This document shows, piece after piece, positions 5,493 to 36,397 of a stretch of DNA of 44,209 nt; positions within the stretch are counted from its first letter, which is position 1, and each line of letters starts with the position of its first letter. The notes below the pieces were generated by a model. It was not told the origin of the DNA and ran no database searches. It was given only the letters and a program-made list of their open reading frames with translations. Location: UHGV virus genome UHGV-0168748. One strand, written 5' to 3'. The position numbers and the translations under genes were made by a program. The stretch is from a virus.

Positions 5493-5957
5493 TTAGTCAC
5501 GAGACTTTATTTTAAGGTACGCAACCGCAGCCCCCATGATTGCAATACCGGTACCCCAACCTATCTTTTCTAATGTAGTCAAATCAGACCAATTCTTCCC
5601 TTCGTTACGTCGTTTGGCCTCTTCTGCTAGTTCTCTCCACATCGCTTCACGTTCCAGACAGCTGGGGTTTATTTCTGCCTCACATCGACGTTTTCGTTCT
5701 TCTTCCCCAACCAGTTCTTCTAAATAGAGTCTTGTTTCTTCCACAGCTTGTTCATAGACGTCTAAGCGATCGGGAAGAATTCTCCTGTGGGAGGCTTTGT
5801 TGCGAACGGAGGCAATCATGTGGAGTTTCCGTTCGTATTTTGGATCGAGAAGATGAGTTATACTTCTGGTCTTCTCATGAAGTCCACGACCAGTACCGCC
5901 GAGTTTTTCCACAAGTTCTTCTACAGAAATTGCAAGATCAAGAATATGTGTACGCAT
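5493..5957 (-). CDS. hypothetical tail-anchored membrane protein
   Basis: 154 aa; charged coiled-coil-like body and C-terminal hydrophobic helix IGWGTGIAIMGAAVAYL. Confidence 0.5.
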   Translation of the reverse strand: MRTHILDLAISVEELVEKLGGTGRGLHEKTRSITHLLDPKYERKLHMIASVRNKASHRRILPDRLDVYEQAVEETRLYLEELVGEEERKRRCEAEINPSCLEREAMWRELAEEAKRRNEGKNWSDLTTLEKIGWGTGIAIMGAAVAYLKIKSRD

Positions 5958-6016
5958 AACCGTTTCTCCGCTTAAATGTAGTTCGGGGAGACATAAGTCT
6001 ACCTCGCAATGTAAAT

Positions 6017-6385
6017 TTACCTCAGGAGCACAACTTCGCGTTGCAGCTCGTCTTGTGACGGTATGGTGTATACGCCAGACTCGGGGAATGTTAAGTCGCT
6101 TAAAGCGGTATGGAATGTTATACCGTGAACTGCTTCAATTTTCCGCACGAGGGGATACCCCGTAGTTGTAGCCCAGTCATGGTCAACGAACAGTACAGTG
6201 CCGGGTTGTCCAGACCCATCCCAGACACGTAGGTTTACAGTCTTTCCTGAGAAATTAGCAAGTTCTGTTCGTAGTCTGAGTAACACATAACGCGAGAAGG
6301 TTAGCTCAATAACACGCTGAGGTAAAATAAACTCAGGAAACTCAAAAGCAAAACCGTTTGGCGTGTTAATAAAGAAAGCTTGCAT
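6017..6385 (-). CDS. hypothetical protein
   Basis: 122-aa track ORF. Confidence 0.5.
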   Translation of the reverse strand: MQAFFINTPNGFAFEFPEFILPQRVIELTFSRYVLLRLRTELANFSGKTVNLRVWDGSGQPGTVLFVDHDWATTTGYPLVRKIEAVHGITFHTALSDLTFPESGVYTIPSQDELQREVVLLR

Positions 6386-10604: not shown

Positions 10605-10675
10605 AATTCACTCCTAAAGAATGTCTCACGTAGATAATATCTGTCTGACTTCTTTTTGAAATTGAGGTAGTAAGA

Positions 10676-18787: not shown

Positions 18788-18823
18788 TTTAATAACTCCA
18801 ATGGTGTTACACCTGGATAATAT

Positions 18824-19480
18824 CTATCTAAGAAACTTTTTAGCGAAGTCGAAATCGAGGGCATACTCCGTAACTGTTGCGTCGTACCCAGAATGAATCT
18901 GGTCGGACATTAGAAGGTATTGGTTTAGGTCAGGTGGAAGTATCCACGCATCACCTTGTTTAAATAACGAATAGCGCAAAGGGGAAGGGGTGATTTCTTC
19001 TGGCGCGGAGGTTCTTACTGCGGTCAGGTCATTTACGTTTAATGAAACCAAACGCACAGGATAATTTATCCCTATTTCCGTTAAGCACGTACGACGATCT
19101 AACCAAACGATTTCGCCGGGATAACGGTCGAGTTCCGACCACAGCTTGCAGCAAGCGGTATTAAAGTCCTTTCGTAGCTCTGGTGTTCCTTCTACATATC
19201 CGATACATTCTTCAGTAAGCGGGGCGTGGAGACGTTCAGGATTAACACTACGTATCCGTGCTACTGAGAAATAATCATCCAGTGGATCGCACCCCGCATT
19301 ACGTAAACCTATCACACCCCATAGCGCTTGTAAGGAGAAGCCTAAAGCAAGCTGCTCCAACTCTAGAGTTTCGTCGGAATAAGGGGCGCGAAAGCCCCAT
19401 TTACGATTAGCCGTTTCTAAGAAACGTTGTTGAAGGTACCGAGGGGCTTTTGTCATGACTTCGCTATAAACAACTAGCAT
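18824..19480 (-). CDS. hypothetical protein
   Basis: 218-aa track ORF. Confidence 0.55.
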   Translation of the reverse strand: MLVVYSEVMTKAPRYLQQRFLETANRKWGFRAPYSDETLELEQLALGFSLQALWGVIGLRNAGCDPLDDYFSVARIRSVNPERLHAPLTEECIGYVEGTPELRKDFNTACCKLWSELDRYPGEIVWLDRRTCLTEIGINYPVRLVSLNVNDLTAVRTSAPEEITPSPLRYSLFKQGDAWILPPDLNQYLLMSDQIHSGYDATVTEYALDFDFAKKFLR

Positions 19481-21820: not shown

Positions 21821-22279
21821 TCAGTACAAACACGTCGTCAAGTATTGATTGTACGAATCGAGTAAGGTCTGACGGTCAGAACGGTAATTCCACAACAAAC
21901 TGTTAAGTTTTCGTGATAAGTCCCGACTAATTTCTTGCGGCGTTAAGGAACTTTCATCGAGTGATAAACGTTCAGGCACAACATGTAATTTCGGTAACTC
22001 ATAACGTTCGCAGAGTGGAGCCAACATCGGAGGGCTCCAGCCACGTTTAGCGGCTTGCTGATTTAAATTTCGTGTGTAGACATAAACGTAATAAGCATAG
22101 GTGTTGACGTCTGCAACATACTCACGCATTGCATCTTTGTCAATTTTCCAATTCACCATGATGGGTGGTGTCGGAGGAGGTTCCAATGGACGATAAGCTG
22201 CCCGTCTGACCTCTTCGCCGTAGCTATTACTCACCAAACCCATGAATACAACCATGATGAATAACAGCGTTTTCATCAA
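21821..22279 (-). CDS. secreted Pro-rich protein (signal peptide)
   Basis: N-terminal MMKTLLFIMVVFMGLVSNSYG then PLEPPPTPP; no lipobox cysteine. Confidence 0.5.
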   Translation of the reverse strand: MMKTLLFIMVVFMGLVSNSYGEEVRRAAYRPLEPPPTPPIMVNWKIDKDAMREYVADVNTYAYYVYVYTRNLNQQAAKRGWSPPMLAPLCERYELPKLHVVPERLSLDESSLTPQEISRDLSRKLNSLLWNYRSDRQTLLDSYNQYLTTCLY

Positions 22280-22783
22280 TCACTCCTTAGCAGACGTTAG
22301 CGTCTTTATAATCTCCTGTCGAAAACTGTTTGCATCTAAACTACCCACAGGTCTCGCCGATGCTTCTTTGCGTTGTTCTGGTGTTGAAGCCGGACTAACA
22401 GGAGTTTCTGGTTTTGTTGGCGTCAGATCCTTCGTCGAACCGCTCTCTTTCGATGGGTTGAACGTGCTTTCATATGGCGGTTTCTGGCCGAGACAAACGA
22501 AGAGTCTGTCGTATAACTTGCCATTATCTTCTTTCAGCTTATCACGATCTTGTTTCATCTCTTGATAAGACTGCGTCATATATGCGTCATGAGACTGCAC
22601 CGAAACGAGTGCGTGAAATTGTTGCACATACGCGTAGGAGACGAAGCCCGAATATGATAACAAGATCGTGATGATTAAAGTCATTATCTTGCTTGCTCTT
22701 GATACGTTTTCTCCTTCTCCTGGTTTAAATGCTTCCATTAACATCTGAAGGAAGAACGGAAGCACTTTAAGAAATGAACCCAT
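22280..22783 (-). CDS. membrane protein with one TM helix, periplasmic coiled coil and Pro/Ser/Thr-rich tail
   Basis: TM helix IMTLIITILLSYSGFVSYAYV followed by charged heptad-like region. Confidence 0.5.
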   Translation of the reverse strand: MGSFLKVLPFFLQMLMEAFKPGEGENVSRASKIMTLIITILLSYSGFVSYAYVQQFHALVSVQSHDAYMTQSYQEMKQDRDKLKEDNGKLYDRLFVCLGQKPPYESTFNPSKESGSTKDLTPTKPETPVSPASTPEQRKEASARPVGSLDANSFRQEIIKTLTSAKE

Positions 22784-25837: not shown

Positions 25838-26317
25838 TTAAAATAGTGGCAGATTACGCCATTGTCCTATTGAATAGAAAGCTTTTGGGTGTTTACGGAT
25901 ATACTCTTTTGCTTCTTCCGGCAACCATCGATCGCCTGCACGTTTCTGTTGCGCAACAATAACCGCCAGTAACAAATACGGATTCTTCGAACCGGGGAAT
26001 TTCGCATTAGTTTCTAACGCAATATCTAACATCGACTCCCAGCCCAGGCTTTTATGCTGCGCTGGTAAGCGATCTTCAATGTACATTAACCAGTTCATGA
26101 TTTCTTTAGGTTTATACGGGCACGTATAATTCGCCCAACTAATCATGAAGAACTTAATAATCTTTGCGATAACCCATACAGGGATTGCTACGAATAAACA
26201 GAATATAGTTAACTGCGAAGCAGGCGCATTAACGAAAGTAACCGCCGCAAGAATCATAAACAACTCAAGTACCACAAACCAAAAACGTGTTGGATAACGC
26301 CAAATAAATTTTATCAT
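25838..26317 (-). CDS. hypothetical membrane protein (two TM helices)
   Basis: Two hydrophobic segments in N-terminal half; 159 aa. Confidence 0.5.
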   Translation of the reverse strand: MIKFIWRYPTRFWFVVLELFMILAAVTFVNAPASQLTIFCLFVAIPVWVIAKIIKFFMISWANYTCPYKPKEIMNWLMYIEDRLPAQHKSLGWESMLDIALETNAKFPGSKNPYLLLAVIVAQQKRAGDRWLPEEAKEYIRKHPKAFYSIGQWRNLPLF

Positions 26318-26381: not shown

Positions 26382-26891
26382 TTAGAAGAACGGTTGGTTT
26401 GGAATAACCGCGTATTCCAGAATGAACATGTGTTCAGGGGCGTCAGTTTTACGCCAGACTTTGTGTGTTGCTACGAGTTTTTCCAGAATCGTTAAGAAGC
26501 TACGTTGGCAGTAGGTGTTTTCGCCAAGTAACAGATTCTGAAGTTCTACAGTAGCATCCATATACGCTTGCTTAAAGACCAACCCACGGTTATACTGACC
26601 CGTATAGTTCCAGAGCAACACTTTACCTTCTTCGGTTTCTTTTACCGTTGGCCGTAGACCACAAATCCAGAGCAGTGCTAAGTTTACGTTCCAATCAAAC
26701 TCTTGCTCATTCTCGGGATCATCGCCGAAGGCAGTAGGCAAAGCATCGTAAAATTCGTGCTTCTCAGCGAAATCTTCATCCGATTTAATCTCGTCTTCGA
26801 TACTGCTTCGGACGATAGCGTAAACGTCTTTCGCGGTTAGTTGTGCGGCTTTTGTAATGCCTTTATACCAATCGGTTACAACGATGCTCAA
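26382..26891 (-). CDS. hypothetical protein
   Basis: 169-aa track ORF. Confidence 0.55.
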   Translation of the reverse strand: MSIVVTDWYKGITKAAQLTAKDVYAIVRSSIEDEIKSDEDFAEKHEFYDALPTAFGDDPENEQEFDWNVNLALLWICGLRPTVKETEEGKVLLWNYTGQYNRGLVFKQAYMDATVELQNLLLGENTYCQRSFLTILEKLVATHKVWRKTDAPEHMFILEYAVIPNQPFF

Positions 26892-27613
26892 AGGGCAACT
26901 CCTCTATTGATTGGAAAACTCGTGTTTATCGTATCCCAAATTCTACTGACTTCCGCCAATTGAATCTGACGTGGTGACTTCTTCGCAAACGCAAGCTGAC
27001 GTGGAGCCGAGCCCACAGCAGCAGGTACATCGATTTTCGCACTGTAAAATGCTGCGTCTTTCATAAACCCTGCCATTTCTCGTTGTGCTGCTCGAGATTT
27101 GCTTTTGATTCGTGCGTGTGCACCACTTTCACCCCAGTGGTAAGCTAACGCAACTTCAGCCATGGTGGGCTTGCGTTTGAGTCGTTTAGTTAACCCCTTT
27201 TCAAGATGCTTAATATACGCGGCAGCCAGCAAAACAGCATTACGCGGATTGTACAAATCGGCGTTCTGACTAAGACCTAATTCTTTTCCGTAAAGCTTTA
27301 GCAAATTACGTTTGGTACTCGGAACCATCTGTACCAGGCTGTGTGCTCTTGAGCTTTTATTGTAAGCTTTAGGATCAAAACGCGATTCACGGTAAATCAG
27401 CGTAACCATCAATTTAGGATCAACGCCTTGCTTTCGGGAGATTTCCACAATTAAAGGACTGACCTTTTCGAATCGATGTTGGATTTGTGCAAACTCACGA
27501 TGATGCTTAGATTGTGGCGTTGACGTTGACGCCTGTGCGTTAAACGCGAAAAGTGTTACCAGTAAAAGAAAGAAGATACGAAACATTTTGCTTCTCCAGT
27601 TGGATTTATACAT
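26888..27613 (-). CDS. lytic transglycosylase (SLT domain) with signal peptide
   Basis: Signal-like MFRIFFLLLVTLFAFNAQA; SLT motifs YRESRFDP, SLVQMVP, AAAYI. Confidence 0.6.
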   Translation of the reverse strand: MYKSNWRSKMFRIFFLLLVTLFAFNAQASTSTPQSKHHREFAQIQHRFEKVSPLIVEISRKQGVDPKLMVTLIYRESRFDPKAYNKSSRAHSLVQMVPSTKRNLLKLYGKELGLSQNADLYNPRNAVLLAAAYIKHLEKGLTKRLKRKPTMAEVALAYHWGESGAHARIKSKSRAAQREMAGFMKDAAFYSAKIDVPAAVGSAPRQLAFAKKSPRQIQLAEVSRIWDTINTSFPINRGVAL

Positions 27614-27686
27614 TTCCGTATTCCGTAAGACGAAATGACGGCGCGGACAGCTAATACTCCTTTGTTGTGTGCCCTAATGATAATAT

Positions 27687-28184
27687 CTATTTAAAAGAGT
27701 TTGGAATTAAAGACCGAGCTTCTTGGTACAATGCATCGGGTAGATATAACGTGTGATGTTGTCTCCTTGTTTCAAGTTTGTCGTAAAGCCACAAAAAGAT
27801 TTCTTGTCTTTCCCAAGGACGTAACCAACCATTGGCCATTCCCAGTGGAGGGATAGCAACAGAGGTGTCCAGGTTTTCAACACAATCTGCTAATGCGGTA
27901 ATACCCGCAGTAACATAAGAAACTTGGGACTTTAGACGCCAGTGTGTTTTTGTGGGGAGCAGGATACACTTTTCGTCAGGATAAACGTAGACATTTCCAA
28001 TCCTGATTTCGTTTTCGCGACAACGTTTACGATAATCCTGATAAAGCGTAGGGTAGCGTTCTCGACAGGCTAAAGCAATACCGCGACCCATTGCGCCCAC
28101 GCAGTTAATGGTAACGACCTTATAAGCTTCAGGTGCATTAAAAAGGTCGCCGCCGATCTCAGATTCTTTACGTATCGTTAGCAT
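27687..28184 (-). CDS. TARG1/DarG-like macrodomain protein (predicted ADP-ribose hydrolase)
   Basis: GDLF...NCVGAMGRGIALACRERYP and AIPPLGMANGWL match the TARG1-type GDLF / MGxGIA / IGCGL pattern. Confidence 0.55.
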   Translation of the reverse strand: MLTIRKESEIGGDLFNAPEAYKVVTINCVGAMGRGIALACRERYPTLYQDYRKRCRENEIRIGNVYVYPDEKCILLPTKTHWRLKSQVSYVTAGITALADCVENLDTSVAIPPLGMANGWLRPWERQEIFLWLYDKLETRRQHHTLYLPDALYQEARSLIPNSFK

Positions 28185-28271
28185 AACGATTCACTCGAAG
28201 TTGATGGACGGTGTTAAAACGTGTACCACCGATCGACAACTCAACGAGTATGGCGATATATGTTTTACCCA

Positions 28272-28640
28272 TCATTGATTTTTCTTAATCCACTGTTTGA
28301 CTGCCGTTTCTAAACCTTCGTGCTGTAGACCCAGGCGTTGCATAGCCAACGCTAAGTTGAGTGTATGAACAACCTGTTCACGGAACTGATGATCGTTCAT
28401 GCGGTCCCAGACTTTCTCTACAGCAATATTGTGCTTCCAAAGCAGATAAGCTTCACGACATGATGCACGACGAACTAAGCTGGGTTTAACAAAAGGTAGT
28501 TCGATTTCAGGTAAGTAGCCCAACATCTTAACTAAACGTGTGACTTGTGTGTTACCAAAATCGCCGCATTGATAACAAATTTGTAGAATGTCAAACTCAT
28601 CCAGTGGTAGACCGTAAACTGACGGATTCTCTGTGAACAT
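28272..28640 (-). CDS. hypothetical protein
   Basis: 122-aa track ORF; overlaps the end of 28597-28842 in another frame. Confidence 0.45.
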   Translation of the reverse strand: MFTENPSVYGLPLDEFDILQICYQCGDFGNTQVTRLVKMLGYLPEIELPFVKPSLVRRASCREAYLLWKHNIAVEKVWDRMNDHQFREQVVHTLNLALAMQRLGLQHEGLETAVKQWIKKNQ

Positions 28641-28908: not shown

Positions 28909-29352
28909 TTAGAATGATTTGCTAAAATCGACCCACTCACGATCGCGTGAGTAAACCGCTTGATAACCGCGTCGGATGAAATATTCTTTTGCTTCTTTGC
29001 ACTTCGCATACATGCCAACAACGATCTCGCTGAAAGCTTCATCGGCTGCGATTGCTTTAAAAATCTCTTTCATTACGCCACGCTGTCGATAATCCGGCAA
29101 CACATACAGTGAACGTATCTTGAGGGAACCATTACGATTCCGGTAACTGCAATAACCTACTGCCACACCGTCCAGATACACCAGAACTACGCAGTTACCC
29201 TCGATCAGCTGCCGTGCATTTAACTTCGGCACGGCCATTTTGATTTTTAGTAACGTAGCTTGGTGGTCTAAGTAACGGTAGTGTAATTTAAGTAAGTCAC
29301 TTGCTTGTTGCTCACCGACTTTAGAGGATGCGTTCAATAAATAAATTTCCAT
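28909..29352 (-). CDS. GNAT-family N-acetyltransferase
   Basis: GNAT motif A-like YVLPDYRQRGVMKEIFKA; start moved to ATG 29352 with AAGG RBS. Confidence 0.5.
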   Translation of the reverse strand: MEIYLLNASSKVGEQQASDLLKLHYRYLDHQATLLKIKMAVPKLNARQLIEGNCVVLVYLDGVAVGYCSYRNRNGSLKIRSLYVLPDYRQRGVMKEIFKAIAADEAFSEIVVGMYAKCKEAKEYFIRRGYQAVYSRDREWVDFSKSF

Positions 29353-29385
29353 TTGCAAACCTTAGAGACGCAAAAAAGTAAAAAG

Positions 29386-29514
29386 TTAAAACCAACGCGC
29401 AATGACGAATGCTGCGGCGGCTAATATGGCGGCGGTAATTAGCATCCCGCCCCATGTAAGCTCCGCATCGTATAATGCAGAGATCGCCGCATTCGTAGTA
29501 TTTATCGAGGTCAT
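29386..29514 (-). CDS. small membrane peptide (42 aa), not in ORF track
   Basis: Hand-translated MTSINTTNAAISALYDAELTWGGMLITAAILAAAAFVIARWF; AGGAACAG RBS. Confidence 0.4.
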   Translation of the reverse strand: MTSINTTNAAISALYDAELTWGGMLITAAILAAAAFVIARWF

Positions 29515-29561
29515 CTTTTCTGTTCCTGTTAGTACCCTCCTTACAGAGGGTACGTTCTGGA

Positions 29562-29672
29562 TTATTTGAATGTCGAACCTTCGAACGCCCAGCCGTGTCG
29601 TTTAATTAACCAGTTTAAACCTTTACCGATCAACCACAACGCACCTAGCGTTAGCAGAACCCCTTCAATCAT
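29562..29672 (-). CDS. small membrane peptide (36 aa), not in ORF track
   Basis: Hand-translated MIEGVLLTLGALWLIGKGLNWLIKRHGWAFEGSTFK; strong AGGAGAGGG RBS. Confidence 0.45.
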   Translation of the reverse strand: MIEGVLLTLGALWLIGKGLNWLIKRHGWAFEGSTFK

Positions 29673-29683
29673 AATTCCCTCTC

Positions 29684-29869
29684 CTAATTCCGCCACTCGC
29701 ATTCGCGTTGACGCCAAATCGAACCCCAGAATAGTTTAATCGAATACGATGAAACTACCCATAAAATCATTACCACGCAAAACATGACGTAAAGTATTGC
29801 CAAAATGACCATAAAGCCAAATCCCGCCGCGCTCATCGAACGACGGAACCAATCAGTTTGCATAAACAA
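29684..29869 (-). CDS. small membrane protein (61 aa)
   Basis: Track ORF with hydrophobic core FGFMVILAILYVMFCVVMILWVV; GAGGGAG upstream. Confidence 0.4.
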   Translation of the reverse strand: MFMQTDWFRRSMSAAGFGFMVILAILYVMFCVVMILWVVSSYSIKLFWGSIWRQRECEWRN

Positions 29870-32357
29870 TTTTTACTCCCTCGTTATACACCGCAGGTAA
29901 TGTCACCCCTTCCGGTTCAATGACACAGTACGATGCTTCGTTAAGTTTAGAATGGACTTCAGCTTCGTGGGAGACCACCAGTAACTGCGAGAACTCCCCT
30001 GAGTTTGCTAACGTTTTAATAAAACCAACCAGGTTATTACGGTGTTCTTCGTCCATACCCTCTGAGGGTTCATCCAATAGCAAAGGAAACTGATGTAATT
30101 TCAACGCTTTATACGCAGTCAGTCTGAACATCAGATTGAATATAGCACGTTGTGCCTTAGACCCTTTACGCACATCAGGAACGGGTTCAGGATGTGTTTT
30201 TAGTTGGACAGGAAAAGTATAATCCAAATCACCGTCGGTGAGATCACAAGGCATAACTCGCATGGGGTACGTCCAGACTTGTTCGATATAGCGCGTCATT
30301 AACTCTGTGATTCTGACGATAGCATTGTAAAAATACTTTCTGAGTACACCTTTTTCTGGCGAGAACGCCTGAATCATCAATTTGTTATTAAACTGCTGGG
30401 CTTGTAAATCCGCAAGTTCGCGTTCCAACGTATTGAGCTGATTCAGTTCACTTTCCATTTGACGATAACGCTCACGTGCTGTCGTAAACGCATCCAGTTT
30501 CCCTTCTCGTGCCCGTAAGAGTTCTTCGACAACTGTGTTTGTCAAAGTAACCTTAACGTCATTCTCTAACCGTTCGAATAACGCGCTAAAATCGTCTATA
30601 GCACGTTTAACGCTCTCTAGATAGGTAAGTGTCGTATTAGCTAACTCGTGCTCTCTACGACGCACTGAGAGCGTTTCTGTGGCTTTACCTAAACGCGATT
30701 GTTGGAAAGCAATTTTCTGTTGTAAAGCACCATCGACGTTACCCACAGCAGCTACCGCATCTTGCCATTCTTTTTCTGCCTTCACTAACCGTTGACGGGT
30801 TTCATGATATTCAATAGCAGAATACAGCTCACTGTCAAAAGCCGCGCAGAGACTTCCGAACTGTTCGCGTGATTCTGTAAAGACATTACGTTCTTGTAGA
30901 CACTTAAAGAACATGCTTAAAACCGGGTCCTTTGAGTACGTCAACACGATTTCACGAACCTGACGCATATACGTTACATCAGATTCCAGTTCGACACGAT
31001 CGCGTAATATACTGTCTAACTGTGTTTGAAGCTCCGTACGTTGTTGCTGTTGGCCTCTAATCGAGGTTTCAAGTTCAGACAAAGAACGCGTAACCCCAGG
31101 TCGAAATTTAAACCGACATTGCGGGCAATCTACTTCTGCTGTTTCCAGATAGTGATTTCGTTCGTGGTTCAAGTTTTGTAAAACATTCTCTACGCGCTGG
31201 AGTCTATCTCGCAATCCTGCGGTCTTCTGATCCATCACCAGTAGACGTTCTTCCAAAACGTTGAGCTTTTCGGTTGAATGAATGGCGTCCAGTGTTGTTC
31301 CCAGTCGTTGGCCCCAAACGCGTGCATCGGTTGCAGCACGTAGCTGGTCTAAATTCGCACTCTCACTAAACAGTCCAGGAAAGAGATGCTCGGTGTCCCA
31401 TTTGGTAAGCACTTCACGTAAACGTGCGAGAGTGTTCTTGAGACCCTCGTGATTGCGCATCAGGTAATCCTGTCGCGTTGACTCGTCCATCAATAACGAC
31501 AGATCTTTATTCAACATTGATACTTCCGTTTCTGCTGAAACGACAGCTTCGCGTGCTGTGGCTTCATTGTGTCGTGCGTTCAGTATCTGTTCGTCGGTAG
31601 GCAAACCACCACGATGTTGTAATATTGCGTCGATAGTTGGACCTAAGCCGTTTAATAACGCCTGGATTGATTCGATAGTAACGCCACGATTTAAACCCGG
31701 TAGCTGTTCGATTTGTCGGTTCAGTTCGCGTAAATCCGATTCCAAGCCTTTTAATCTTACCGCTAACTGTTGACGTTCTTCTTCATTTTCAATAACACGT
31801 GTTCGTAACTCTGCGATCTTACGACTGGTAATTTCAATGCCACCGTTTAAGACGGTGAGGTTTTTCCGCAATCTCTGATAGAACCCTAGCGCGTAAGTAA
31901 GGTCAGAGGTACTTAAACGGTAAAACCATTTACGACGTAATTCCGTTCCCGCGTCCGTTAACAACACCTCACCGTTTAACAATTCTTTAATTTCTTTCGT
32001 AATACCAGTGATTTCTTCAACGCGTGAATTGTAAACCTTTGCGTTACCTTGCTCGACAATCTTCGTTCCCGTAGTGAGATTCTCAATATCGCAAACCAAC
32101 GAGTTGCCTTTACGGGCAACTTTGAAACGGTAACGTTGATCGCCGACTAAACAATAATTCGTGTAAGAACCCCCATCCCTGAATTCTGTTTTAGCCGGAG
32201 CTAAGGGCAAAAATACGGACAGTAAACTGGTCTTCCCACAACCGTTCCCACCCAGGATAATCGTTGTCGGTGACTGGATAGTGAAATCGAACGTTTCAAT
32301 TTCGTGCAATCCCATCCCCGTAAAACCTTTGAGTACAATACGTTCAACTTTTAGCAT
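29853..32357 (-). CDS. Rad50/SbcC-like SMC-family ATPase with CxxC zinc hook
   Basis: Walker A GGNGCGKTSLL, long coiled coil with central CPQC, Walker B LLLDEPSEGMD, H-loop VVSHE; start moved to ATG 32357 with GGAGGTG RBS. Confidence 0.7.
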   Translation of the reverse strand: MLKVERIVLKGFTGMGLHEIETFDFTIQSPTTIILGGNGCGKTSLLSVFLPLAPAKTEFRDGGSYTNYCLVGDQRYRFKVARKGNSLVCDIENLTTGTKIVEQGNAKVYNSRVEEITGITKEIKELLNGEVLLTDAGTELRRKWFYRLSTSDLTYALGFYQRLRKNLTVLNGGIEITSRKIAELRTRVIENEEERQQLAVRLKGLESDLRELNRQIEQLPGLNRGVTIESIQALLNGLGPTIDAILQHRGGLPTDEQILNARHNEATAREAVVSAETEVSMLNKDLSLLMDESTRQDYLMRNHEGLKNTLARLREVLTKWDTEHLFPGLFSESANLDQLRAATDARVWGQRLGTTLDAIHSTEKLNVLEERLLVMDQKTAGLRDRLQRVENVLQNLNHERNHYLETAEVDCPQCRFKFRPGVTRSLSELETSIRGQQQQRTELQTQLDSILRDRVELESDVTYMRQVREIVLTYSKDPVLSMFFKCLQERNVFTESREQFGSLCAAFDSELYSAIEYHETRQRLVKAEKEWQDAVAAVGNVDGALQQKIAFQQSRLGKATETLSVRRREHELANTTLTYLESVKRAIDDFSALFERLENDVKVTLTNTVVEELLRAREGKLDAFTTARERYRQMESELNQLNTLERELADLQAQQFNNKLMIQAFSPEKGVLRKYFYNAIVRITELMTRYIEQVWTYPMRVMPCDLTDGDLDYTFPVQLKTHPEPVPDVRKGSKAQRAIFNLMFRLTAYKALKLHQFPLLLDEPSEGMDEEHRNNLVGFIKTLANSGEFSQLLVVSHEAEVHSKLNEASYCVIEPEGVTLPAVYNEGVKIVYAN

Positions 32358-32388
32358 ACCCACCTCCATAATCACGGAGTGTGGTGTA

Positions 32389-32435
32389 AAAAGAAAAAAA
32401 AATAAAAACGAATGGGAGAACCCGAAGGTTCTCCC
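32389..32435 (-). terminator. rho-independent terminator
   Basis: GGGAGAACC-CGAA-GGTTCTCCC followed on minus strand by a long U-run. Confidence 0.75.
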
Positions 32436-32440
32436 AAGTG

Positions 32441-33660: not shown

Positions 33661-34050
33661 TCAGTAATCTAATTCGATAGCGCCTGCCATCTCACCGCGT
33701 TCTTCGATAACGATTAAGTAACGGTCGCGAGATTTGCTTTTAGCAAGCGATAAGACAACAGTAGGGTCGCACGTTTTCGTAGTGATAGGAAGAACCTCTT
33801 TTGCGACAGAATCAAGTAGGAAATAGTAACCGGCTGGGCACATCGCGCCCCCGTCGGCTTTCACCAGAATGTAGCGCCCATCTGCGCCGACTTCTTGACA
33901 GGTTGTTTCTCCATTCTCACAGACTTCAAAACTGGGTGGATTGTACTGATAATCGTCGTTGTTGTTTGCTGTCAGCAGTAAATCGTTAACCTGGGTAGAA
34001 GCAGTTACGCTCAGAGAGAAGAAGAATGCTAAAGCGCAAATGAAACGCAT
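33661..34050 (-). CDS. small secreted protein (signal peptide)
   Basis: MRFICALAFFFSLSVTAST; several cysteines in mature part. Confidence 0.55.
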   Translation of the reverse strand: MRFICALAFFFSLSVTASTQVNDLLLTANNNDDYQYNPPSFEVCENGETTCQEVGADGRYILVKADGGAMCPAGYYFLLDSVAKEVLPITTKTCDPTVVLSLAKSKSRDRYLIVIEERGEMAGAIELDY

Positions 34051-34060
34051 GAGTTACTCC

Positions 34061-34471
34061 TTAAATTTTAAGTTTATCCATAGCCACAACGATAGATTTT
34101 TCAGAGGTGTCTAATATCCCTACCCACGGCACACCATCTACGACTTGGAAGAACGGTTTGTTATTTCCAGAGCACAGACGCTTGTCGTTGTATTCGAGAC
34201 GTTGGGCTTTCCACGTTTCGAGGTTAAGTACCGACATAGGGCTGTCGTAGCACCAGGCACCGCCTTGCTCAACAACGAATACGTATCTGTTACCTTTGTA
34301 TTTAAACAGATTCTTCGTCTGGCAGTACAAACCATCGATTTCTGTACAGTAGAAATCATCGGTACTGTTGACGTATTTGATACCATCCGGTAATTTTATT
34401 GTTTTTGCTGTCACGTTAGCAGTGAAGAGAACAGCGATCGCAACGAGAAGCGTGTTGATGATATTTTTCAT
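34061..34471 (-). CDS. small secreted protein (signal peptide)
   Basis: MKNIINTLLVAIAVLFTANVTA. Confidence 0.55.
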   Translation of the reverse strand: MKNIINTLLVAIAVLFTANVTAKTIKLPDGIKYVNSTDDFYCTEIDGLYCQTKNLFKYKGNRYVFVVEQGGAWCYDSPMSVLNLETWKAQRLEYNDKRLCSGNNKPFFQVVDGVPWVGILDTSEKSIVVAMDKLKI

Positions 34472-34482
34472 GATAAACGTCC

Positions 34483-34968
34483 TTAGTATTTAGATTGTTC
34501 CGCGTATTTCTTAACCAGATAAGCGAATTCAGCAACACCGATATCACCGAACCAAATCAGGTAACCGGGGTCGATGTTGTAGTAATAACCGACGAGTTCG
34601 TTGGTTTGTGGGTTGTATAACGTTACGATATATTCCCAGCCACAAGCGTTAGCTTTACAGCCACCACTTTCAATCCAGATTTTGTTATTAATGTTTACCG
34701 GGTACATCGCACCGCCGGGGCCATCCATGTAACCTTTAGCACCGAACATACCATTCAATCCTACCGGGTCCAGTGTTTTATCAACAACCGCTTTAAATGA
34801 CTTATCGGTATCGTACACGTCGTTGATGTTTGGACACGCGTTAGGTTGTCCGTCCCATGCGTTGGTGTCGCATGTAAGCGCATCTTTCACTGATGCTGCA
34901 TCAACAGTTGGTGTAACACCGATAAACATGAAAGCCAGAAAGAACATCAGTGTGTGTAAACGTTTCAT
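34483..34968 (-). CDS. small secreted protein, possibly Ivy-like
   Basis: Signal peptide MKRLHTLMFFLAFMFIGVTPTVDA; GGCKANACGW loop resembles the CKPHDCG loop of Ivy lysozyme inhibitors. Confidence 0.5.
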   Translation of the reverse strand: MKRLHTLMFFLAFMFIGVTPTVDAASVKDALTCDTNAWDGQPNACPNINDVYDTDKSFKAVVDKTLDPVGLNGMFGAKGYMDGPGGAMYPVNINNKIWIESGGCKANACGWEYIVTLYNPQTNELVGYYYNIDPGYLIWFGDIGVAEFAYLVKKYAEQSKY

Positions 34969-34986
34969 CGTAACTACTCCTTTAGA

Positions 34987-35382
34987 TTATTCAGCAGGGC
35001 GATTTAAAGTAACACGACCGATTAATTCGGCATTATGAAAGAAATCTACAGCGGTATAATTACCAACTGATAACGGGTGAATACTAACCGACATGACTTT
35101 TGGTTGTTCGCAAGCAATATCAGTTAGACGTTGATAGACACGTGCGCCGTTATCGGCAATGATTAGTCCGGTGCATGTACTGTCACGCATCAGGCGGTAC
35201 ACCTCTAGTTTACCGAAGCTCCGCATTAGTGTTGGTGTTTCATCAGGATTAATAATTGGGGAATCTGGTGCTGGGTCGTAGTAGCGGATATCCGATTCAC
35301 CGAAAGCGTACGTACCGGTAATACCGATAGCGCAGAAAATAATGATAGTATAAAGTATAGTTTTAATATTCATTTCACGCAC
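34987..35382 (-). CDS. small secreted protein (signal peptide)
   Basis: MNIKTILYTIIIFCAIGITGTYA. Confidence 0.5.
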   Translation of the reverse strand: MREMNIKTILYTIIIFCAIGITGTYAFGESDIRYYDPAPDSPIINPDETPTLMRSFGKLEVYRLMRDSTCTGLIIADNGARVYQRLTDIACEQPKVMSVSIHPLSVGNYTAVDFFHNAELIGRVTLNRPAE

Positions 35383-35433
35383 TCCTTAAATAGAACGGGG
35401 ACCACGAAGTCCCCCCCCCTTTTTTTCCTGTAA

Positions 35434-35904
35434 TTATTGTTCGTATTCGGTGTTCCAGCAAGATTCGAGGAAGTTACCGTCCATCACTTTCTTAACGTTT
35501 TTGGCTGATGGGTTAAAGGTAGCAACCTTTTTCTGGTCGAGGTATAAGTCAAACTCAGTTGCTGTAGAGATTGCTTTTACAAAACTAACCCAAGTATTGT
35601 CGGTATTACGTGTGCCGTCAGGAACTACACCCCAGAACTCTTCACCATCGATAACGAAACTAATGTCGTTATCTTCCGAGTTGGCCACCACATTACCATC
35701 TTTAGAGATAAAGATCTTGTGTGGTAAAATGTTGTTTTCATCTGGATTACCGGTACAGCTAATGGTAATACCCCATCCACCGTTATCGATACCATACTCG
35801 GTTTCACCCATTGCAAAGCCACTACCCCACATGTTCGGAATGGCCTGTGCAGCAGTGGCGCTTACAGTTAAAACGATAGCTAAGAAGATGTTAGACAGTT
35901 TCAT
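35434..35904 (-). CDS. small secreted protein, paralogue of 35942-36397
   Basis: Signal peptide; conserved blocks TISCTGN, SFVIDGEEF, TWVSFVKAI shared with the neighbour. Confidence 0.55.
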   Translation of the reverse strand: MKLSNIFLAIVLTVSATAAQAIPNMWGSGFAMGETEYGIDNGGWGITISCTGNPDENNILPHKIFISKDGNVVANSEDNDISFVIDGEEFWGVVPDGTRNTDNTWVSFVKAISTATEFDLYLDQKKVATFNPSAKNVKKVMDGNFLESCWNTEYEQ

Positions 35905-35941
35905 GGTTATATTCCTTTTAGTTTAAAAATTAAGTTATTTA

Positions 35942-36397
35942 TCAAGGACGGCTATGTCCACAGTTCTTAAAGAAAGTTTCGGGCAGACGCTCACCATCTA
36001 CAATAAAGTTAGCGGCTTCGTTACCGTTGATAGCCACACCGAAGCTTTTTGCATTAGCGATAGCATTAGCGAAGGCAACCCAAGCTTTTTCTGCTTTGTC
36101 GCTGCCGTCAATAGTGGGAATGATATAGTTTTTGCCGTTTACGACAATACTCATTTCGTTGTCTTCGGCATTAGTTGAACCGACCGGTTCACCGTAATAC
36201 CAAACCATGCGACCGTAAAACTTACGATTAGCCGTTGCGGTATCGCAGTTGATAGACAAGCTGTTCCCATTTTCGTCTTCGATTTCGTAAACAGCATTTC
36301 CCGGACTTTGAAGTCCTTCCCAGCTTCCGATTGCGGCGTAAGCGTTATTGAGACCGAAAGTTAAAAGGGTTACTAAGAATGCGATAAAAGTTTTCAT
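35942..36397 (-). CDS. small secreted protein, paralogue of 35434-35904
   Basis: Signal peptide; conserved blocks SINCDTA, SIVVNGKNY, AWVAFANAI. Confidence 0.55.
   Translation of the reverse strand: MKTFIAFLVTLLTFGLNNAYAAIGSWEGLQSPGNAVYEIEDENGNSLSINCDTATANRKFYGRMVWYYGEPVGSTNAEDNEMSIVVNGKNYIIPTIDGSDKAEKAWVAFANAIANAKSFGVAINGNEAANFIVDGERLPETFFKNCGHSRP

Follow-up and report, generated by a model that had tools for sequence, protein, structure and literature searches.

The stretch of viral DNA analysed here (the window, 44,209 nucleotides of UHGV virus genome UHGV-0168748) carries three very short minus-strand open reading frames of 61, 36 and 42 amino acids in the interval between an SbcC-like and a GNAT gene (29386-29869). 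These frames, called A, B and C below in 5' to 3' order, raise the question of whether they are genes at all and, if so, how they are expressed and what their products would do for the phage. A sequence-only reading had placed them at coordinates that proved correct and had taken them for genuine small hydrophobic peptide genes, which conservation, purifying selection and ribosome-binding sites now bear out. The features of the region are collected in Table 1.

Table 1. Features of the SbcC-GNAT region and of the lysin gene (window positions).
Feature	Position	Strand	Remarks
Intrinsic-terminator-like hairpin, UUCG loop and T-run	32413-32436	minus	Ends the preceding gene; upstream boundary of the SbcC unit
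CTTTTTAC element, putative promoter/transcription start	32386-32393	minus	Between terminator and SbcC
SbcC/Rad50-like SMC ATPase gene, SPN3US gp186 homologue	29853-32357	minus	Pfam SMC_N; first gene of the unit
Peptide A	29684-29869	minus	61 aa from TTG 29869, or 59 aa from ATG 29863
Peptide B	29562-29672	minus	36 aa from ATG
B-C stem-loop, GUACCCUCU-GUAA-GGAGGGUAC	29532-29553	minus	8-nt exact arms 29532-29539/29546-29553
Peptide C	29386-29514	minus	42 aa
AACTTTTTAC element, putative start of the next unit	29378-29387	minus	Follows the C stop immediately; 26 nt to the GNAT ATG 29352
GNAT acetyltransferase gene	28909-29352	minus	Pfam Acetyltransf_1/7/10, phrog_3810; outside the peptide module
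SLT-domain lysin gene	26888-27613	minus	Only lysin-like gene; five genes (1.8 kb) downstream of the peptides

Source of the window and related phages

The SbcC-like protein was 71% identical in amino acid sequence to gp207 of the Erwinia phage Asesino, 70% to its counterpart in phiEaH2 and 58% to gp186 of Salmonella phage SPN3US. On these protein identities the window is assigned to an undescribed jumbo phage of the SPN3US/phiEaH2 group, kin to Asesino. The placement came from protein-level and 'distant' searches only, and no near-identical match to the region was found by megablast in GenBank phages or PLSDB plasmids. Closer relatives were uncultivated contigs of about 220-228 kb and one circular E. 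coli replicon. In the IMG/VR loci L018 and L021 the SbcC protein was 96% identical to that of the window, in L019 and L020 it was 87% identical, and further relatives were present in many Logan, ENA and NCBI assemblies. The circular replicon, NZ_CP173450.1 (L022), has 221,873 bp; it comes from strain 98232, a urinary E. coli isolate, was entered as a 'plasmid' and carries this phage type.

Conservation of the three reading frames

The sequence-only reading had made its case depend on conservation of the reading frames in related genomes. Across 30 related loci, which represent 28 distinct sequences, all three frames remained open, and the sole change in the length of B among the 28 was an in-frame deletion of 24 nt. 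Between the three lineages, nucleotide differences were in excess at third codon positions, and the pooled pN/pS was 0.16-0.38 in the named frames as against 0.9-2.0 in the two shifted frames (0.17-0.43 for A, 0.14-0.44 for B and 0.15-0.29 for C, each in its named frame). The earlier statement that each frame has a Shine-Dalgarno sequence was sound for A (GAGGGAG, -8.0 kcal/mol, 5 nt before the TTG) and for B (AGGAGAGGG, -7.7 kcal/mol, which includes the stop codon of A), whereas C has only AGGAA in the window, a weak site of -4.3 kcal/mol, and AGGAG or GAGGGA in relatives; at random positions the median was -2.1 and the 10th percentile -5.0 kcal/mol.

That the interval is a non-coding spacer holding chance frames could be argued from the shortness of all three and from the skipping of A and/or B by several annotation pipelines. 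PGAP, for example, called C but neither A nor B in NZ_CP173450.1. Against it stand the open frames, the Shine-Dalgarno sites, profile matches with E = 1e-13 to 1e-22 (see below) and purifying selection confined to the named frames. The open frames and the frame-specific selection effectively refute this explanation, and A, B and C are conserved genes for what are predicted to be very small membrane proteins. Small membrane proteins are routinely missed in annotation, and gene callers skip the TTG-start A.

The start of A was considered separately. Its TTG, at -16 relative to the SbcC stop, was present in 28 of 28 distinct relatives. In the lineage of L019 the downstream ATG is replaced by ACG, and therefore TTG is the likely start there; in other genera ATG or TTG occupies the same -16 position. 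Because of these three observations the 61-aa version of A is a reasonable choice, with the reservation that the invariance of the TTG is partly imposed by the overlapping SbcC codons. A dual start of the lambda S type (TTG..ATG) was also considered for A and rejected, as the second start is absent from the L019 lineage and adds no charge.

A single transmembrane (TM) helix had been proposed for each peptide. By the maximum of the Kyte-Doolittle score over 19 residues (KD19), this is well founded for A (3.09, strong) and C (2.12, strong), while B is borderline (1.61). A has one long TM helix and a basic, cysteine-containing C-terminus (..RQRECEWRN), and AlphaFold2, with the homologue alignment as input, modelled it as one continuous helix over residues 2-58 (mean pLDDT 82.6). 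B, for which the mechanical ORF begins at an upstream TTG and has 51 aa, consists of a 15-residue hydrophobic N-terminus and a strongly amphipathic basic segment at residues 14-25 (..KGLNWLIKRHGWAF..); because of its borderline hydrophobicity it may be a peripheral amphipathic peptide and not a true transmembrane protein. C begins with about 20 polar, acidic residues, with M1, T2, N5, N8, Y15 and W21 invariant, and its C-terminal alanine-rich TM helix ends in RWF. This layout of polar N-terminus, one TM helix and short aromatic/basic C-terminus is shared with the major coat protein of Pf3, a 44-aa protein inserted by YidC in an N-out/C-in orientation. The likeness is one of topology only, as C gave no alignment with the Pf3 coat sequence.

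The peptide genes as the probable tail of the SbcC unit

The SbcC gene probably starts at the ATG of MLKVERI at 32357, which is preceded by GGAGGTG; the mechanical ORF begins at GTG 32375. Upstream of it, a UUCG-loop terminator hairpin with a T-run was found in all genera compared, and a TTTTTAC or TTTATTTAC motif was found in 11 of the 11 loci with a located SbcC start. In the window, all five minus-strand occurrences of CTTTTTAC are intergenic and lie just upstream of genes. At the other end of the interval, the sequence between C and the GNAT gene, TTTTACTTTTTTGCGTCTCTAAGG, is conserved in relatives with small changes. Because a terminator and the TTTTTAC motif lie upstream of SbcC and the AACTTTTTAC element follows the stop codon of C, we infer that SbcC, A, B, the hairpin and C form one transcription unit. 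The promoter assignment within it is putative only, because CTTTTTAC was not significantly enriched in the window (6 found and 3.2 expected) and is partly confounded with the T-runs of terminators.

The strongest contextual fact, missed in the sequence-only reading, is the 17-nt overlap between A and the SbcC stop codon, together with the position of the peptide genes at the tail of the SbcC unit in every related genus. B begins 11 nt after A in the window, and ATGA-type overlaps of A and B occur in several relatives. Since the overlap with SbcC and the short gap between A and B leave no space for a promoter of their own, the peptides must come from the SbcC mRNA, and the ribosomes that translate A have probably just finished SbcC. 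The outcome is mainly a correction of annotation and the delimitation of an operon, and a three-gene module attached to the essential SbcC gene is a defined target for knock-down and expression work.

A hairpin among the three frames had likewise been pointed out, and it does exist, in the B-C spacer only. The stem has 9 bp counting one G-U pair, with a folding z-score of -2.4 and no T-run after it in the window, where it is unique (0 expected by chance). A stable hairpin was found at the same place in all three lineages with differing sequences. Among the changes is the exchange of a G-C for an A-U pair, for which L038 shows a G-U intermediate, and in the L019 lineage a differently built 9-bp stem again carries a GUAA loop. 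This comparison was made from folds of the individual sequences; MAFFT set the three versions out of register and RNAalifold was uninformative. Because the hairpin is kept across three lineages with different sequences, selection for structure is suggested, for example in protection of the mRNA 3' end or in partial termination.

Farther upstream on the same strand, two genes before SbcC, there is an array of six consecutive genes (33661-36397; 129, 136, 161, 131, 156 and 151 aa) with signal-peptide-like hydrophobic N-termini, probably encoding secreted proteins.

Homologues of the peptides and content of the module

Profile searches of 5.8 billion proteins, in which the B profile was led by a 46-aa homologue, returned 32 clusters for A, 17 for B and 12 for C. 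All came from jumbo-phage-sized contigs or from SPN3US-, Erskinevirus- or Machinavirus-type phages, and all were named 'hypothetical'. With the A profile, HMMER run exhaustively over 1.84 billion representative proteins gave only 8, all in-family. By tblastn, B was matched in 36 phage records, A in 3 only and C in none, probably due to low-complexity filtering, and profile searches were needed. Among the PHROGs, B matched phrog_13448 (E = 1.5e-13), A matched phrog_16515 marginally (E = 0.003) and the match of C to phrog_29196 was not significant (E = 0.2); all three groups are listed as 'unknown function'. Purpose-built profiles linked A and C to SPN3US-type homologues with E = 1e-17 to 1e-22. 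The homologues of A include SPN3US gp187 and Asesino gp208, those of C include the SPN3US-type gp189, and that of B is unannotated in SPN3US (L002 5198-5302) and in Asesino. Sequence searches of Pfam, NCBIfam, PADLOC and the PDB with the peptides gave no informative match: in Pfam B and C had none and A had only sub-threshold matches to unrelated families, and the PADLOC anti-phage defence and toxin profiles gave no match at E <= 1. The families of A, B and C are thus already in the databases as hypothetical proteins of related phages, and within the databases searched they are restricted to one clade of enterobacterial jumbo phages.

In Seoulvirus, Erskinevirus, Machinavirus and Wellingtonvirus the place between SbcC and GNAT is taken by a string of overlapping small genes in the order A, B, a 70-75-aa protein with two TM helices, C, D and E, where C occurs in Seoulvirus-like phages only, D has 35 aa and ends in ..ALTQGWF, and E is arginine-rich with 76-122 aa. 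Counting the lineage of the window, A and B are found in five lineages. In each of these genera the start of the A homologue falls between -16 and +5 nt of the SbcC stop, and in Derbicusvirus small TM frames that are not homologous to A start at the same spot (-7 to +10 nt). No such frames follow SbcC in Vibrio phage pVp-JHP1101 and phiKZ. The direct homologues of the peptides in SPN3US and Asesino occupy the same place behind SbcC, and the overlaps are the same, but the module of the window is reduced, without the two-TM protein, D and E, and has a hairpin where relatives have overlapping genes. Its SbcC-GNAT gap of 495 nt contains only A, B and C, as against 915-1099 nt, where measured, in relatives with extra small genes. 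The content of the module is variable, with the two-TM protein, C, D and E coming and going. C and D, both ending in W(L)F, were considered as paralogues; this was rejected by hhalign.

In SPN3US, an arginine-rich ORF (...EDWRGNQKRHERMWRRK...RRFQRRC; L002 5721-5999) is unannotated and overlaps the annotated gp190 (5948-6070) in a different frame. It is conserved across Seoulvirus, Erskinevirus and Machinavirus and absent from the lineage of the window, and the gp190 annotation is probably a mis-call.

Relation of the peptides to lysis

For the function of the peptides, the sequence-only reading had offered holin or antiholin, depolarising toxin and modulator of host membrane complexes. This is a generic list among which sequence alone does not decide; it can be narrowed in so far as a classical holin role for A, B and C is disfavoured, since five genes lie between them and the secreted SLT lysin, whose gene has a conserved promoter-like element of its own. 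The evidence on the lysin itself is as follows. Its signal peptide is typical and cleavable, with the cut between MYKSNWRSKMFRIFFLLLVTLFAFNAQA and Ser, and the homologues in Huxley and in Vibrio phage pVp-JHP1101 are alike in this. Because of this signal peptide the lysin would be exported, not released by a holin, unlike gp144 of phiKZ. The idea that a secreted endolysin goes together with the presence of the peptides was dropped, as the SLT protein of the Vibrio relative also has a signal peptide. The block upstream of the SLT gene, TTAAATAGATATTATC..GGGCAC..AAGGAGT..GCTGTCCGC, is conserved in L018-L021 and in Machinavirus phages and contains the AT-rich AGATATTATC, of which the window has three exact copies (27679-27688, 18816-18825 and 10633-10642, minus strand), each just upstream of a minus-strand gene. 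With at most one mismatch there were 7 matches as against 2.7 expected, a number reached by 0 of 100 shuffles. The block is likely a promoter or 5'-UTR element of a distinct class.

Control of lysis by at least one peptide, as a small holin, a pinholin or an antiholin-like protein that depolarises the inner membrane and so activates the secreted SLT transglycosylase, or sets the timing of this event, was judged unlikely. A does resemble small holins and pinholins in its small size, its one strong TM helix and its charged C-terminal tail, the small-xxx-small pattern in the alanine-rich helix of C could allow oligomerisation, and the peptide and SLT genes share a strand and lie within 2.3 kb. 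An SLT protein with a cleavable-looking signal peptide would, besides, need a membrane-energy trigger and not a large hole. However, no match to a holin, spanin or antiholin family was found in Pfam, PHROGs or NCBIfam, and the peptides are tied to SbcC, by its function no late gene. The interval between C and the SLT gene is filled by the GNAT gene, an 81-aa gene, a 122-aa gene, a 35-aa ORF and a macro-domain gene, and the Vibrio relative keeps the order SbcC...macro...secreted SLT without the peptides. The peptide genes are not in a lysis cassette and have no adjacent spanin pair; spanins themselves are an ill fit, since A, B and C, with 36-61 aa, have no room for a periplasmic domain and contain no lipobox. 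In phiKZ, the one chimallivirus with tested lysis genes, the holin, its regulator, the spanins and the endolysin are contiguous, and triggering of the holin gp142 by dinitrophenol was tested under inducible expression (PMC12894885). The class III holin gp142 differs from A in its large cytoplasmic domain and in its place inside that cassette.

Other genes of the window deserve mention in this connection. Two genes after the SLT gene, just after a terminator, a 159-aa protein (25838-26317, minus) has two strong N-terminal TM helices, a cytoplasmic-looking tail and a match to phrog_20030 (unknown function); by position it is a better holin candidate than A, B or C. At 21821-22783 (minus), a 167-aa protein with an N-terminal TM helix and a coiled-coil-like stretch is followed by a 152-aa signal-peptide protein, a pair that is loosely spanin-like, its second gene being without a lipobox cysteine. 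The 35-aa ORF (28168-28275, minus; MMGKTYIAILVELSIGGTRFNTVHQLRVNRYANDT) is a fourth small frame, which overlaps its neighbours on both sides, the 122-aa gene at the stop and the macro-domain gene at the start, and is conserved and called in close relatives.

Possible functions of the SbcC-linked peptides

Of the functions weighed, the one we rank first, though we hold it only tentatively, is that A, B and C are accessory inner-membrane micro-proteins which are expressed with SbcC and alter host membrane complexes or block superinfection. It is favoured because the content of the module is variable and lineage-specific, because the peptides are co-expressed with SbcC and not with the lysin, and because there is a precedent in imm and sp of T4. 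In the T4 genome imm adjoins gene 43 and sp is near genes 41 and 61 in the replication region. Imm and Sp, too, are small proteins of the membrane or periplasm, and their genes lie among those for replication and recombination, outside the lysis cassette, but the two proteins have no homology to the peptides by Pfam, and Imm has two TM helices. On this model, the promoter-distal tail of the SbcC unit would encode single-pass proteins that insert in the inner membrane during SbcC expression and before the late lysis functions, a timing read from co-transcription only. By charge distribution B and C would be oriented N-out/C-in, and A would form one long helix. The peptides would then bind or perturb host membrane complexes or the state of the membrane, as in superinfection exclusion or conditioning of the envelope, and would not be the holin of the phage.

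The conserved coupling to SbcC might itself be functional and not mere compaction of the genome. Ranked third, after lysis control, and in our view improbable, is a role in which A, perhaps together with B, would hold the phage SbcC/SbcD nuclease at the membrane or regulate it there. A membrane association of T4 gp46/47, perhaps via the 46-aa gp47.1, was noted by Thomas et al., as was the position of SPN3US gp187 directly behind SbcC (PMC5105663). gp47.1 is a predicted membrane protein translationally coupled to gene 47 (SbcD), the stop codon of 47.1 overlapping the start of gene 47, and A, as a small hydrophobic frame, is coupled to its SbcC gene by an overlap in a like manner. In addition, all related genera sampled have a small TM frame whose start falls between -16 and +10 nt of the SbcC stop, even Derbicusvirus, where this frame is not homologous to A. 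But A and gp47.1 show no similarity (hhalign probability 0.35%), and gp47.1 is encoded upstream of SbcD, not downstream of SbcC. The SbcC genes of phiKZ and the Vibrio relative have no adjacent TM frame, so SbcC does not generally need such a partner, and the SPN3US gene for SbcD (gp27) lies elsewhere in that genome. In related phages DNA is replicated within a protein shell at a distance from the membrane, an awkward setting for a tethered nuclease. The stronger version, by analogy with T4 47.1-47-46, in which A, in every case translated from the end of the SbcC message, would act as a functional nuclease partner that recruits or gates SbcC/SbcD at the inner membrane, is very doubtful; if true, it would mean membrane-linked processing of DNA ends outside the phage nucleus, for example of host DNA or of incoming superinfecting DNA.

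Ranked last, and improbable, is a role as host-killing toxins of the type I kind, in which depolarisation of the membrane or a block to cell division by the peptides would contribute to host shut-off. Their size and hydrophobicity resemble those of small depolarising peptides, and they are probably expressed before the late stage, with SbcC. Profile searches, however, gave no homology to toxin families, early depolarisation would harm the energy-hungry infection of a jumbo phage, and invariant soluble residues, such as those in the N-terminus of C, suggest binding of a specific partner and not general damage to the membrane. Should the peptides control superinfection, membrane energetics or SbcCD, a membrane component would be added to the biology of nucleus-forming phages.

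Occurrence of the lineage in public data

In public data from enterobacteria and the gut, the phage lineage turns up very commonly (L022, L024-L047). The C protein of the L019 lineage was indexed in 912 blocks, and there are many contigs of 220-228 kb, which include isolate assemblies labelled E. coli, Shigella and Salmonella. This abundance, together with the deposit of a circular 'plasmid', suggests maintenance in a carrier state or by pseudolysogeny.
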